Translations under genes and position numbers: made by a program
In this document: one piece after another, positions 27,097 to 39,509 of the stretch
How the letters are laid out: each line of letters begins with the position of its first letter
Position numbering within the stretch: position 1 is the first letter of the stretch
Notes under the pieces: model-generated
Seen by the model: only the letters and a program-made list of their open reading frames with translations
Databases searched by the model: none
What the model was told of the DNA's origin: nothing
Origin: Polyangiaceae bacterium
GTDB taxonomy: Bacteria > Myxococcota_A > Polyangia > Polyangiales > Polyangiaceae
Reading direction: 5' to 3'
Length of the DNA: 42,058 nt
Assembly: GCA_050012715.1 (NCBI GenBank)
Contig: JBEKGQ010000004.1
Span: 1 to 42,058, forward strand

Positions 27097-29073
27097 TCAC
27101 TTCGGCCGAGCCGCCTTTCTCGCGACGCTGAAGTAGAAGGTGGCGCCGACGTCGACCGCTCCCTCGCCCCATATCCGGCCGCCGTGTCGGTCGATGATGC
27201 GCTGCACGGTCGCGAGCCCGATCCCCGTGCCCGGGAAGTCGCTGTCGCGATGCAGCCTCTGGAACGAGCGGAACAGGCGCGCGGCATACGCCATGTCGAA
27301 GCCCGCGCCGTTGTCCCGTACCGCGACGACCGTCTCACCCTCCGCGCGGCTCGCCGAGACCTCGATCCGGGCATCGTCCCGCTTCTTCGTGAACTTCCAC
27401 GCGTTGCCGAGCAGGTTCTCGAGCACGATCATCGTCAGGCGCGCGTCGGCGTCGACGACCATCCCGTCCTGGACGACAACTGTCACCCGACGCTCCGGCT
27501 CCCGTCGCTGCAACTCGGACAGCACGGCGTGGGCCTGCCGCGACAGGTCGGTCGCCTGGCGATGGACCTCGAGGCGGCTCATGCGAGACAGCTGGAGGAG
27601 GTCGTCGATGATCTCCTCCATTCGCTTCGCCGCGGAGCGAACCCGAGCCACGTAGCCGCGGGCCTGGTCGTCGAGCAGGTCGCCGCAGTCCTCCAGCAGC
27701 ATCTGGCTGAAGCCGTCGATGCCCCGCAGCGGCGCGCGGAGATCGTGCGACACCGAGTAGCTGAACGCCTCGAGCTCGCGGTTCTTGCGCTCGAGCTCCT
27801 CGACGTGCCCCGCGCGCGTGTCGGCCAGCTCGCGCGCGGCCCGGGCCTCACCAGCCTCCATCTCCTTCTTCAGGAGCTCCTCGCGGATCCGCCGGTTCTC
27901 GTCCTCGAACTGCTTGCGGCGGATCTGGGCGCGCACCCGCGCCTTGAGGACGTCGAACTCGCTCGACTTCGCGATGTAGTCGTCGGCGCCGGCGCCGAGC
28001 CCGTCGAGCATCGCGGTGCGATCGTCGAGCCCGGTCAGCATGATGAGCGGGATGTCCCGCACGATCGGCGCCGCCTTGATGCGCCGGCACGTCTCCTGGC
28101 CTCCCAGCCCGGGCATCAGGCGATCGAGGAGGATGCAATCGACCGGCTCGACCGCGAGCAGCTCGAGCGCCTCCTCTCCGTCGCGGGCGAGGACGACCTC
28201 GTAGCGCTCGCCGCGCAGCACCGACGCCACCTCGGCCAGATACGTCGGACTGTCGTCGACGGCGAGGATCTTCTTCGGCCCGTGCGCGCTCGCGCCCTCG
28301 TTCGGCCGGATGCCGGCGATGCCTCGCCGCAGCGCCGCGCCGATGCGCGCGAGGATGACGTCGATGTCCTCTTCCTTGCGCACGAACGCGTCCGCCCCGG
28401 CGTCGAGCGCCCGGAGCTCCGCGTCCCCACCTTCCGTGCCGGTGAGCAGCACGCAGGGCGTGTCCCGGAGCGCCACGTCGAGCCGAACGTGGCGGATGAC
28501 CGCCGCGCCGTCAATCCCGGGCAGCTGGCCGTCCACGACGATGCCGTGAGGACGCTGCGCGGCGGCCTGACGGAGCCCGTCTTCGCCGTCGCTCGCGACG
28601 AGGACGGCGTACCCCGCGCCCTCGAGGGCCGAGCGCAGCGCCTCCCGGAAGGTCACGCTGTCGTCGATCACGAGGACGGTGGGCCGCTCCGACACCCCTG
28701 CGGGCCCCCCCCGCATGCGCTCCCTGGCTTTCGCGACGACGTACCCCGCGTCGTACGGCTTGCCCACGTACTCGTCCGCCCCCATCCGGAGACCACGCAC
28801 GCGGTCCTTGACCTCGGCCTCGCTCGACAGCATGAGCACGGCGACGGACGCGCCGGACCCGGACCCGCGCAGCTCACCGAGGAGCTCGACGCCGTCGCCG
28901 TCCGGAAGGATCACGTCGAGCACGACGACCGAGACGTCGCCGCGCGCGAGCGCTGCGCGCGCCTCCGCGAGGGTCGAGCACGGCACCGCGCGGAAGCCGG
29001 CGGCCTCGAACGCCTCGACGAGGTCCATGCGTACGGTGAGGCTGTCGTCGACGATGAGGACGGTCGGGATCAC
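27097..29073 (-). CDS. Sensorless hybrid histidine kinase: REC-REC-REC - coiled coil - HisKA - HATPase_c
   Basis: Three receivers with full DD / D / T(S) / K sets: VLIVDDS...VVVLDVILPDGDG...MLSS...GKPY; VLVIDDS...IVVDGQLPGIDG...LLTG...VRKE; ILAVDDS...ILLDRLMPGLGG...MLTG...IAKS. H-box FSYSVSHDLRAPL. N/G boxes LLGNAWKF, DNGAGFD, GTGIGLATV. No TM or sensor domain. The GTG start overlaps the cheB stop (GTGA). Confidence 0.9.
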   Translation of the reverse strand: MIPTVLIVDDSLTVRMDLVEAFEAAGFRAVPCSTLAEARAALARGDVSVVVLDVILPDGDGVELLGELRGSGSGASVAVLMLSSEAEVKDRVRGLRMGADEYVGKPYDAGYVVAKARERMRGGPAGVSERPTVLVIDDSVTFREALRSALEGAGYAVLVASDGEDGLRQAAAQRPHGIVVDGQLPGIDGAAVIRHVRLDVALRDTPCVLLTGTEGGDAELRALDAGADAFVRKEEDIDVILARIGAALRRGIAGIRPNEGASAHGPKKILAVDDSPTYLAEVASVLRGERYEVVLARDGEEALELLAVEPVDCILLDRLMPGLGGQETCRRIKAAPIVRDIPLIMLTGLDDRTAMLDGLGAGADDYIAKSSEFDVLKARVRAQIRRKQFEDENRRIREELLKKEMEAGEARAARELADTRAGHVEELERKNRELEAFSYSVSHDLRAPLRGIDGFSQMLLEDCGDLLDDQARGYVARVRSAAKRMEEIIDDLLQLSRMSRLEVHRQATDLSRQAHAVLSELQRREPERRVTVVVQDGMVVDADARLTMIVLENLLGNAWKFTKKRDDARIEVSASRAEGETVVAVRDNGAGFDMAYAARLFRSFQRLHRDSDFPGTGIGLATVQRIIDRHGGRIWGEGAVDVGATFYFSVARKAARPK

Positions 29074-37572: not shown

Positions 37573-39509
37573 CCGACACACCGCCGGGAGGCCTGCGGAT
37601 CCTGTTGATCGAGGACTCCGACGACGACGCGGTGCTCGTCGAGCGCGTGCTCCGGCGCGGGCTGCCCGTCGCGCACCTGCAACGTGTCGAGGACGGCGAC
37701 GCGATGCGCGAGTCGCTGAGGAGCGGCGACTACGACGTGGTGGTGTCCGACTGGTCGCTGCCCGCCTTCGGAGCGGCGGCGGCGCTCGACGTCGTGCGCG
37801 AGGTGGCCGCGGACGTCCCGTTCATCATCACGTCGGGGTCGGTCGACGAGCAGACCGCGGTCGGCGCGCTCCGGTCCGGCGCTCGCGACTTCGTCCTCAA
37901 GACGAACCTCGCGCGCCTGGTTCCGGCCATCGAGCGCGAGGTCCGCGAGAGCAAGGGCCGCGCGGCGCGCCGGCGCGCGGAGGAGCAGCTGCGGGCGGCG
38001 GAGGCTCGCTACAGCGAGCTCTTCGAGCGCAGTCCCCTGCCGATGTGGGTGTTCGATCGCACGACGCTGGCGTTCATCGCGGTCAACGCGGCCGCGGTCG
38101 AGCACTACGGGTACAGCCGGGACGAGTTCGCGCGCATGACGATCGCGGACATTCGCCCTCCCGAGGAGGTGGCCGACATGCACGAGGCGGTGGCCCGCCT
38201 CCCCGACGCCCATCGTCGCTGGCGCCATCGCCGGCGCGACGGGAGCATCATCCTCGTGGAGGTCCAGGCGAGCGACTTCTCCTTCGAAGGGCGCGACGCG
38301 CGGCTGGTGCTCGCCCAGGACGTCACCGCACGAGCCCAGGCCGAAGAGGCCCTGAAGAAGAGCGAAGAGCAGCTCCGCCAGGCGCAGAAGCTGGACGCCA
38401 TCGGGAGCCTCGCCGGCGGCATCGCCCACGACTTCAACAACATGCTCTCGGTCATCCTCAGCTACGCGAACCTGGTGATCGGCGACCTGAAACCCGGCGA
38501 CCCCATCCGGAGCGACGTCGAGGAGATCCAGCGGGCCGGCGAGCGCGCCGCCGAGATGACGAAGCAGCTCCTCGCGTTCAGCCGTCGGCAGATGCTCCAG
38601 CCGAGAGTCGTCGACCTGAACCGGCTGTTGCTGGGAATGGAAAAGATGCTGCGGCGACTCCTCGGCGCGGACATCGACCTCTCGCTCCTCACCGCGCCGA
38701 AGCTCGGCAAGGTCTTCGTCGACCCGAGCCAGATGGAACAGATCATCATGAACCTCGTCGTCAACGCGCGCGACGCGTTGCCGCAGGGTGGTCGGGTCAC
38801 GGTCGAGACCCTCGGCGTCGTGCTCGACTCCGCGTACGTGGCGCAGCACGTCGGCGCGACGCTGGGGTCCCACGTGATGCTCGCGGTGACCGACACCGGG
38901 ATCGGGATGGATCGCGAGACGCAGACGCGCATCTTCGAGCCCTTCTTCACCACGAAGGAGCAGGGCAAGGGCACCGGGCTCGGCCTCTCCACGGTCTTCG
39001 GGATCGTGAAGCAGAGCCAGGGCCACGTCTGGGTGTACAGCGAGCCCGGTCGCGGGACGACGCTGAAGGTCTACCTCCCCGTCCGCGAAGGCGAGGAGGA
39101 CGTCGAGGACGACACGCCCGAGCCGCAGGACCTTCGCGGCAAGGAGACGATTCTGCTCGTCGAGGACGAGGAGCAGGTCCGCGTTCTCGTCCGGTCCGTC
39201 CTCCGTCGAAACGGGTACAACGTGCTGGAGGCGCAGAACGGCGGCGAGGCATTCCTCATCTGCGAACAGTACGGCGCGAGGATCGATCTCCTCCTCACCG
39301 ACGTCGTCATGCCGCGCCTGAGCGGACGCGAGGTCGCGCAGCGGCTACTCGCGCTGCGGCCGACCCTCCGGGTCCTCTACGTGTCCGGCTACACGGAGAA
39401 TACGATCGTGCACCACGGCGTACTCGACGCGGGCGTCCAGTTCCTCTCCAAGCCGATCACGCCGGACGCGCTCCTCCGCAAGGTACGCGAGGTGCTCGAC
39501 GGGTCGTGA
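37569..39509 (+). CDS. Hybrid sensor histidine kinase REC - PAS - HisKA - HATPase_c - REC
   Basis: The ATG overlaps the REC-EAL stop (ATGA). REC1: ILLIEDSDDDAV...VVVSDWSLPAFG...IITSG...VLKT. PAS: YSELFERSPLPMWVFDRTTLAFIAVNAAAVEHYGYSRDEF. H-box LAGGIAHDFNNML. LVVNARDA, DTGIGMD, GTGLGLSTV. REC2: ILLVEDEEQVR...LLLTDVVMPRLSG...YVSG...LSKP. Confidence 0.9.
   Translation: MTDTPPGGLRILLIEDSDDDAVLVERVLRRGLPVAHLQRVEDGDAMRESLRSGDYDVVVSDWSLPAFGAAAALDVVREVAADVPFIITSGSVDEQTAVGALRSGARDFVLKTNLARLVPAIEREVRESKGRAARRRAEEQLRAAEARYSELFERSPLPMWVFDRTTLAFIAVNAAAVEHYGYSRDEFARMTIADIRPPEEVADMHEAVARLPDAHRRWRHRRRDGSIILVEVQASDFSFEGRDARLVLAQDVTARAQAEEALKKSEEQLRQAQKLDAIGSLAGGIAHDFNNMLSVILSYANLVIGDLKPGDPIRSDVEEIQRAGERAAEMTKQLLAFSRRQMLQPRVVDLNRLLLGMEKMLRRLLGADIDLSLLTAPKLGKVFVDPSQMEQIIMNLVVNARDALPQGGRVTVETLGVVLDSAYVAQHVGATLGSHVMLAVTDTGIGMDRETQTRIFEPFFTTKEQGKGTGLGLSTVFGIVKQSQGHVWVYSEPGRGTTLKVYLPVREGEEDVEDDTPEPQDLRGKETILLVEDEEQVRVLVRSVLRRNGYNVLEAQNGGEAFLICEQYGARIDLLLTDVVMPRLSGREVAQRLLALRPTLRVLYVSGYTENTIVHHGVLDAGVQFLSKPITPDALLRKVREVLDGS

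Follow-up and report, generated by a model that had tools for sequence, protein, structure and literature searches.

Chemosensory pathways that do not serve motility are, to our knowledge, common, and only a few of their outputs are known to us: Wsp, Che3 of Myxococcus xanthus, Che3 of Rhodospirillum centenum and Frz/Dif. In the R. centenum Che3 pathway, phosphotransfer from CheA3 to the first receiver (REC1) of the kinase CheS3, which regulates CheS3, has been demonstrated experimentally, and CheY3 follows; CheS3 is switched off by receiver phosphorylation (PMC3868531). In Burkholderia, WspH is a receiver-kinase output of a Wsp system, its substrate being unknown, and Wsp systems as defined there are confined to Beta- and Gammaproteobacteria (PMC8552884). 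Here we analyze a locus in a 42,058-nucleotide stretch of DNA from a Polyangiaceae bacterium (contig JBEKGQ010000004.1, positions 1 to 42,058; hereafter the window). Its core is a seven-gene chemosensory (che) cassette whose last gene encodes a histidine kinase with three receivers (REC3-HK). Divergent from the cassette is a gene pair encoding a receiver-EAL protein (REC-EAL) and a hybrid kinase. On balance we favor, with modest confidence, the reading that the locus encodes a conserved-cassette pathway of alternative cellular function (ACF) that would act via REC3-HK and, in this organism, control the hydrolysis of cyclic di-GMP (c-di-GMP).

The G+C content of the 42-kb window is ~72%, which makes raw open reading frame (ORF) listings noisy. 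Gene domains were assigned by Pfam scans of the proposed frames, with domain E-values from 1e-10 to 2e-66, and junctions were set by start-codon mapping and translation. All seven cassette genes lie on the minus strand. The first, cheW1 (35662-36153; CheW, E-value 7e-21; 163 aa from the ATG at 36153), is followed by a cheR with a C-terminal TPR domain (34169-35665; GTG start; CheR, 3e-48, and TPR_16 at residues 338-392), cheW2 (33642-34133; CheW, 3e-11) and the gene of a 487-aa methyl-accepting chemotaxis protein (MCP) with a CHASE3 domain (32176-33639; CHASE3, 1e-46; MCPsignal, 1e-35). The remaining three are a cheA-REC hybrid with Hpt, HATPase, CheW-like P5 and C-terminal receiver domains by Pfam (30143-32176), a cheB with a receiver and a methylesterase domain (29070-30140; CheB_methylest, 3e-55, and above the NCBIfam CheB subfamily cut-off) and the REC3-HK gene (27097-29073; GTG start; 658 aa with three Response_reg domains, HisKA and HATPase_c). 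The cheW1 and cheR genes overlap by 4 nt, a 35-nt gap separates cheR from cheW2, and a 2-nt gap separates cheW2 from the MCP gene, which in turn overlaps cheA by 1 nt; cheA and cheB are 2 nt apart, and cheB overlaps the REC3-HK gene by 4 nt. This gene order and all six junctions are exactly those given in a preliminary description of the locus, and Pfam recovered every domain that it had named. NCBIfam gave no equivalog-level names; its matches to CheA, CheR and CheB were generic only.

On the plus strand, the REC-EAL gene (36340-37572; REC, 1e-29; EAL, 2e-53) runs into the hybrid kinase gene (37569-39509; REC-PAS-HisKA-HATPase-REC by Pfam and NCBIfam, with a CckA-like core) through an ATGA overlap, again as described before. 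The divergent region between the two start codons of cheW1 and REC-EAL (36154-36339) measures 186 bp from the cheW1 ATG at 36153, or 132 bp if cheW1 starts at the TTG at 36207, which agrees with the earlier estimate of ~130-190 bp. The ATG is favored because orthologous CheW proteins are 146-165 aa long. The only sigma-70-like match across 26-40 kb, a weak one, lies within this region on the plus strand (36307-36334). A scan for terminator-like sites found none at the operon gene junctions; minus-strand matches lay only within the MCP gene, and the number of sites was not above that of shuffled sequence. The eight receivers counted earlier in the locus are all present, and the DD/ED…D…T/S…K phospho-acceptor set is intact in every one of them.

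A CheR-TPR fusion marks ACF clusters (PMC3447774), and the CheR of the window is such a fusion. The place of a motor CheY is taken by a multidomain receiver protein, REC3-HK, as the last gene, and the whole 42-kb window holds neither a single-domain CheY nor flagellar or pilus genes. By hydropathy profile, the receptor has a first transmembrane segment at ~7-27, a periplasmic CHASE3 domain and a second transmembrane segment at ~184-204, with no room for a HAMP domain. Its signalling domain, from the second segment to the C-terminus, is ~283 aa long with the hairpin tip at E340-E346; as estimated from this length it comprises ~40 heptads, ~20 on either side of the tip and thus roughly symmetrical. 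Compared with Tsr (36H), its C-terminal arm carries two insertions of 7 residues. The CheA receiver is most similar to the second receiver (REC2) of REC3-HK, at 43% identity, which fits a common phosphodonor, the Hpt (P1) domain of CheA. The content of the locus, namely CheR-TPR, CheA-REC, two CheW, a single MCP of ~40 heptads and a multidomain receiver output, supports its earlier assignment as a putative ACF-type, non-motility chemosensory pathway.

The REC3-HK gene proved to be a fixed part of this cassette. A genome scan with the single kinase protein, made with poor peptide patterns, gave 68 loci (cited here by handles such as L001), of which eight held full-length orthologues; the remaining loci held unrelated kinases and were reused as a control set. 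A metagenome scan returned mostly short contigs, ~10 of them informative. The informative sample for the neighbor counts below is 18 loci found through REC3-HK. When the window proteins were searched by tblastn, the cassette genes were found in the same order in all eight full-orthologue genome loci, with only cheB of L001 below the tblastn display threshold. These eight loci are metagenome-assembled genomes (MAGs) labelled delta-proteobacterium, Chloroflexota, Binatia, Kofleriaceae, Acidimicrobiaceae, Beta- and Alphaproteobacteria, labels that span at least six phyla or classes. A colinear cassette was also found in L069-L071, L152-L156 and several metagenome loci, and cheW1 orthologues occupy the same position in L001-L008, L069, L070, L152, L153, L155 and L156. 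Twenty-six fetched loci, L156 included, have REC3-HK behind cheB or cheA. The 4-nt overlap between cheB and the REC3-HK gene is kept in every kinase-found locus with genes called, including L069-L071 and L152-L155; L156, a locus reached through REC-EAL, has an overlap of 1 nt.

Beyond the cassette the flanks differ from locus to locus (rmlD-like, cysS, malic enzyme, ftsA, sspB, GMC oxidoreductase). The fixed position of the kinase behind cheB or cheA in 26 loci indicates an integral output gene and not a chance neighbor. The proposal that REC3-HK belongs to the che operon thus held, since it is the coupled last gene in every orthologous locus examined. We take the seven-gene cassette to be conserved and horizontally spread. 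Soil and sediment metagenomes carry it widely, and we know of no study of any of its members. On one metagenome contig, L082, the kinase of the first cassette is directly followed by another CheR and another CHASE3-MCP (12591-16218), and the cassette appears to have been duplicated in tandem.

Full-length homologues of REC3-HK are 64-81% identical and carry the labels Polyangiaceae, Acidobacteriota, Vicinamibacterales, Chloroflexota and Acidimicrobiales. Across 26 aligned homologues, the residue sets D9/D10/D53/K105, D137/D138/D181/K233 and D273/D274/D317/K369 are invariant, and so are the phosphorylatable H443 and some residues of the N, G1 and G2 boxes. Pfam found no sensor domain in the protein. 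The preserved receivers, H443 and ATP-binding boxes point to REC3-HK being an active kinase whose inputs are three functional receivers. Under the assigned start codon, the window protein has no exact database entry. Related kinases in L079, L080 and L084 have no che genes upstream, so paralogues exist outside the cassettes. Two variants of the output kinase were also seen. The one at L083:3621-6587 has five Response_reg stretches and is followed by a hemerythrin gene, and the one at L008:10064-12574 has four, its C-terminal receiver resembling that of the hybrid kinase at 43-50% identity.

Extra CheY proteins can drain phosphate from CheA, and three intact receivers on one protein might do the same: REC3-HK could be a phosphate sink or a feedback element acting on CheA-REC or CheB, with no dedicated downstream output at the locus. 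Several cassettes, such as those of L002 and L153, have no response-regulator gene nearby, as such a role would allow. Sink behavior has been demonstrated for the CheA3 receiver (PMC3868531). A pure sink, however, would have no need of the conserved DHp-CA core, nor of 64-81% overall identity, and the invariance of H443 and of the ATP-binding boxes across phyla speaks for a working kinase with a substrate. Receiver-containing partners also recur beside the cassette. We judge the sink to be distinctly unlikely, and take REC3-HK to be a probable signalling output of the che array in what follows.

The REC-EAL of the window could be evaluated against known structures. Its alignment with RocR (PDB 3sy8) spans the whole protein, and it aligns also to active EAL structures; the database gene call for it starts 11 codons later and gives 399 aa. 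We took as the mark of a class I EAL the EAL-x-R, N, E-x-x-E, DD, K-x-D, EGVE and Q motifs together with loop 6. The protein has E205ALLR209, N257, E285ITE (E285/E288), D315D316-LGAGY, K336, E372GVE375 and Q392. The catalytic motif set is complete, as had been claimed, and REC-EAL is predicted to be a catalytically competent phosphodiesterase of this class. Orthologues of its partner, the hybrid kinase, were found at 51-56% identity in L069, L070, L152 and L155. A cut copy in L156 is ~50% identical to that of the window over the N-terminal part, and more distant hybrid kinases are present in L088, L006, L001 and L004.

These proteins belong to a set of optional partners around the cassette. 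The most frequent is a PAS hybrid kinase, which adjoins the cassette in 11 of the 18 informative loci (~60%). It lies upstream on the same strand in L069, and divergently in L152, L155 and the window. In L070 and L006 it is downstream and overlaps the REC3-HK gene by 4 nt; in L001, L004, L078 and L088 it is downstream and nearby. Variants are PAS-HK-REC-Hpt in L075 and PAS-PAS-HK-REC in L005. A receiver-type EAL or GGDEF-EAL gene lies within 10 kb in 6 of the 18 loci (~33%), again in varied arrangements. In L001 the che operon opens with a REC-EAL gene, its product 55% identical to that of the window, which lies 3 nt ahead of cheW. The REC-EAL of L069 is divergent from the cassette, that of L008 is convergent, with no separate hybrid kinase, and that of L005 is 8 kb away and overlaps a PAS hybrid kinase. 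L007 has a REC-PAS-GGDEF-EAL gene downstream, and L088 has a REC-PAS-GAF-GGDEF-EAL gene convergent and directly after REC3-HK.

The density of EAL genes was 6 in 418 kb at the cassette loci, compared with 6 in 1.5 Mb at unrelated kinase-centered loci from the same scans. The Poisson P for this enrichment is 7e-3 over all bases and 5e-4 over flanks only, the flank length being a rough estimate, and by locus the Fisher P is 0.006-0.02. Two-component genes are plentiful in myxobacterial genomes, and chance might have placed the operon of REC-EAL and the hybrid kinase beside the che operon. Such an accident would agree with the unrelated signalling genes elsewhere in the window (a Ser/Thr kinase, an FHA-sigma54 activator and an ECF sigma factor) and with the divergent intergenic DNA, which shows no meaningful conservation against the equivalent region of L156. 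It is hard to square with the enrichment of EAL genes over control loci, or with the fact that the three gene families recur together, in rearranged order, in L001, L069, L088, L156 and L158. Chance adjacency is thus already disfavored, and we regard it as highly improbable. A receiver-type EAL gene beside the cassette recurs across independent lineages and in varied arrangements. The preliminary description had looked for both REC3-HK and REC-EAL to be conserved beside the che cluster, and had named an EAL phosphodiesterase as the nearest plausible substrate. REC3-HK is conserved there in every orthologous locus examined; REC-EAL is no constant partner, being present in ~1/3 of the informative loci.

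A reciprocal search from the side of REC-EAL showed that this family is itself well conserved. The relative in L156, 87% identical to the window REC-EAL, diverges from this cassette just as the window gene does, and L158 has one at 69%, 5 kb from a cassette. The relatives traced to within 5 kb of a cassette are those of L156, L158, L001 and L069 (a cut copy). In L157 the gene of a membrane HAMP kinase overlaps a single-receiver gene (11186-13113, minus strand), and this pair is convergent with a REC-EAL orthologue 81% identical to that of the window. This single receiver shares 61-63% identity with the one encoded behind REC3-HK in L069, L154 and L155. The core of the HAMP kinase is 53-60% identical to the REC3-HK core, a similarity to which we give little weight because cores at 45-60% occur in many unrelated kinases. 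The L157 pair looks like this output module attached to another input. The REC-EAL family is tied to the REC3-HK kinase family and to PAS hybrid kinases, not solely to the cassette. Receiver similarity was also tried as a proxy for kinase specificity and discarded, as the REC-EAL receiver is ~30% identical to the single receiver after REC3-HK, which is uninformative.

From these comparisons a signalling route can be proposed. The transmembrane CHASE3 receptor, the two CheW and CheA-REC would form an array, to which CheR-TPR and CheB would give adaptation. Instead of feeding a motor CheY, phosphorylated CheA would transfer its phosphate to REC3-HK, at one, two or all three of its receivers. Receiver phosphorylation would shift the balance between autokinase and phosphatase activity of REC3-HK, as in the step from CheA3 to CheS3 in R. 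centenum, and REC3-HK would signal on to optional neighbors, which in the window would be the receivers of the hybrid kinase and REC-EAL. The end output in the window would be control of c-di-GMP hydrolysis. Such a scheme would be a branched phosphorelay of the CheS3/WspH kind, in which a node fed by both kinases is plausible. Each phosphotransfer step in it is one that we infer from sequence. As donor to REC-EAL, REC3-HK directly and the co-operonic hybrid kinase are about equally likely: the hybrid kinase is favored by the operon coupling in the window and in L005, and the REC3-HK family by the contexts in L001, L008 and L157. Earlier the locus had been read as a chain from array through phosphorelay to c-di-GMP degradation. 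The recurrence of receiver-type EAL genes and the intact EAL motifs of the window protein lend that chain partial support, whereas the donor of REC-EAL and the direction of the effect are not readable from sequence, and the statement that array signalling lowers c-di-GMP went too far.

Several observations weigh against control of c-di-GMP hydrolysis through REC3-HK. About two thirds of the cassettes have no EAL gene within 10 kb, and L002 and L153 have no signalling partner of any kind nearby, so that REC-EAL cannot be the universal output. Translational coupling ties REC-EAL not to REC3-HK but, both in the window and in L005, to the PAS hybrid kinase, which as its direct phosphodonor is as good a candidate as REC3-HK or a better one. 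Two REC-EAL relatives of the reciprocal search, that of L157 and that of L159 (60% identical, with a PAS kinase next), stand without a cassette. A single receiver of ~145-150 aa, whose gene overlaps the 3' end of REC3-HK in L069, L154 and L155, looks like the cognate partner of REC3-HK, and no gene for it was found in the window. Finally, the informative loci number ~18 and are not phylogenetically independent, and the taxonomic labels of the MAGs are possibly wrong.

Many of these points, among them the ATGA overlap of REC-EAL with the hybrid kinase, its coupled counterpart in L005, the REC-EAL and PAS kinase of the cassette-less L159, the single receiver behind REC3-HK and the missing EAL gene near most cassettes, would also be expected if two systems lay side by side. 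The REC-EAL/hybrid-kinase pair would then be a two-component system of its own, setting c-di-GMP hydrolysis by a cytoplasmic PAS signal, the cassette would target another receiver encoded elsewhere, for instance the single receiver of its relatives, and adjacency would reflect co-regulation or the ancestry of a signalling island and not phosphate flow. Against such a separation, the hybrid kinase is the commonest neighbor of the cassette, in varied positions that include the 4-nt overlaps with REC3-HK in L070 and L006, and its N-terminal receiver requires a phosphodonor. REC-EAL heads the che operon in L001, stands beside a cassette that has no separate hybrid kinase in L008, and in L157 an orthologue lies beside a kinase with a REC3-HK-like core and the single-receiver orthologue. 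We hold two independent systems to be rather unlikely, and still prefer control of c-di-GMP hydrolysis by the array through REC3-HK.

A Ser/Thr kinase with a C-terminal PilZ domain is encoded near REC-EAL in three of the loci from the reciprocal search (L156:11233-12489, L157:14929-16182 and L158:8676-9974), and these kinases are 62-78% identical to one another. PilZ is a c-di-GMP-binding fold, and the PilZ kinase may locally read the c-di-GMP pool that REC-EAL sets. No PilZ-kinase orthologue is encoded in the window, whose generic Ser/Thr kinase (3123-5129, minus strand) is only ~33% identical. A broader proposal is possible, although we put it forward tentatively. The cassette would be a horizontally mobile unit spread over at least six phyla or classes, with REC3-HK as a three-input integrator on which the CheA array acts at one receiver and a partner PAS hybrid kinase at others. 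In lineages like that of the window the cassette would drive REC-EAL; such c-di-GMP degradation under array control would be a functional mirror of Wsp, with the local PilZ-kinase reader sometimes completing the circuit.

Other genes of the window lie around this cluster. On the minus strand, 87 nt downstream of the REC3-HK stop, is a 307-aa ORF (26086-27009) with high third-position G+C and a hydrophobic N-terminus that contains Cys; Pfam gave no match for it. The ORF could share the transcript of the che operon. In the other loci its place is taken by other genes, and it is not conserved there. The right border of the signalling cluster is formed by minus-strand genes for a cytochrome P450 (39937-41370) and a Coq4-like protein (41421-42047), which are unrelated to it. 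An ECF-type sigma factor gene (16867-17727, minus strand) overlaps the end of a gene for an HtrA-like trypsin-PDZ protease (17678-18922, minus strand), and the two look like a separate module of an envelope-stress kind. Farther to the left are the gene of the Ser/Thr kinase named above and a plus-strand gene for an FHA-sigma54-activator-HTH_8 regulator (6857-8257); Ser/Thr kinases and FHA-sigma54 regulators are typical myxobacterial signalling genes, and in L157, too, an FHA-sigma54 activator is encoded within a few kb of REC-EAL. Positions 10117-12246 (plus strand) encode a 709-aa protein with thrombospondin type 3 repeats. The overlapping 941-aa ORF (12087-14912, minus strand) has very high first-position G+C and no Pfam match, and may not be a real gene.

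How does this locus compare with the systems described so far? The R. centenum Che3 cluster resembles it as a non-motility che cluster with two CheW, CheR, CheB, a single MCP, CheA-REC and a cluster-encoded, sensor-poor receiver kinase. The two kinases are not orthologues, however. CheS3 is REC-REC(degenerate)-PAS-HWE_HK, whereas the window kinase has three receivers, all intact, followed by HisKA, with no PAS. The output of Che3 is a single-domain CheY3 that acts in cyst formation; the receivers near the window cassette are those of the hybrid kinase and REC-EAL. We therefore rejected membership in the CheS3 family on the HisKA domain (PF00512), the missing PAS, the three intact receivers and the absence of a single-domain receiver from the window. 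By analogy, REC3-HK plausibly works like CheS3, as a functional analogue and not a homologue.

Wsp clusters with WspH share with the window an MCP, two CheW, CheR-TPR, CheA-REC and CheB together with a multidomain receiver output. The Wsp system with WspR, a REC-GGDEF protein, is linked to c-di-GMP; the c-di-GMP enzyme of the window is predicted to degrade it and not to synthesize it, and is encoded by a separate, optional gene. The Wsp gene order is MCP-W-R-W-A-B and that of the window is W-R-W-MCP-A-B, with the MCP fourth; WspH has one receiver and the window kinase three. The lack of GGDEF in the window, the differing synteny and the three-receiver output kinase led us to reject membership in Wsp. 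The Frz system of M. xanthus has a cytoplasmic receptor, FrzCD, without transmembrane segments, and a dual-receiver protein, FrzZ. It was rejected as well, since the window receptor spans the membrane twice, around a periplasmic CHASE3 domain, and the locus encodes no REC-REC protein. The Comamonas Flm system, which came up in a literature search for three-receiver proteins, is of the type IV pilus (Tfp) class and irrelevant here. On the side of REC-EAL, RocR/PvrR of Pseudomonas aeruginosa has the same architecture, aligns over the full length, and shares the catalytic residues and the phospho-acceptor Asp. The window protein reaches 122 bits against an NCBIfam PvrR cut-off of 580 bits and is not an orthologue. 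RocR is fed by the sensor kinase RocS1 and is not known to be fed by a chemosensory pathway.

A census of CheR-TPR clusters by Muñoz-Martínez et al. in 2012 found that ~40% of the response regulators carry a kinase module; its Table S2 lists REC-REC-REC-PAS-HK in Anaeromyxobacter Fw109-5, REC-HK and REC-HK-REC in Methylobacterium, and a Polaromonas JS666 cluster with REC-PAS-HK-REC-HPT and REC-EAL (PMC3447774). The preliminary description had called the architecture uncharacterized. This was too strong, as receiver-kinase endpoints have been characterized in R. centenum, are known in Burkholderia and were catalogued in 2012: a che pathway that ends in a receiver kinase is a catalogued design whose logic is partly characterized. 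That census gives domain strings only, recognizes no seven-gene cassette, and makes neither a cross-phylum comparison nor an experiment. Going by its strings, Methylobacterium or Polaromonas JS666 might carry the system of the window. In the literature that we searched there was no prior description of such a conserved cassette with a fixed triple-receiver HisKA kinase, of its spread over phyla or of its statistical tie to receiver-type EAL enzymes, and no characterized pathway from che to EAL. If the link to REC-EAL is true, this would be the first methylation-adapting receptor array that controls the breakdown of c-di-GMP rather than its synthesis, and a natural model for a multi-receiver kinase that integrates the inputs of different kinases. 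If the link is false, the cassette is still a clean example of the known che-to-receiver-kinase design. To a specialist, the receiver-kinase endpoint familiar from CheS3 and WspH is unsurprising; beside those systems, the cassette stands as a good and testable candidate both for c-di-GMP degradation under array control and for signal integration by several receivers.

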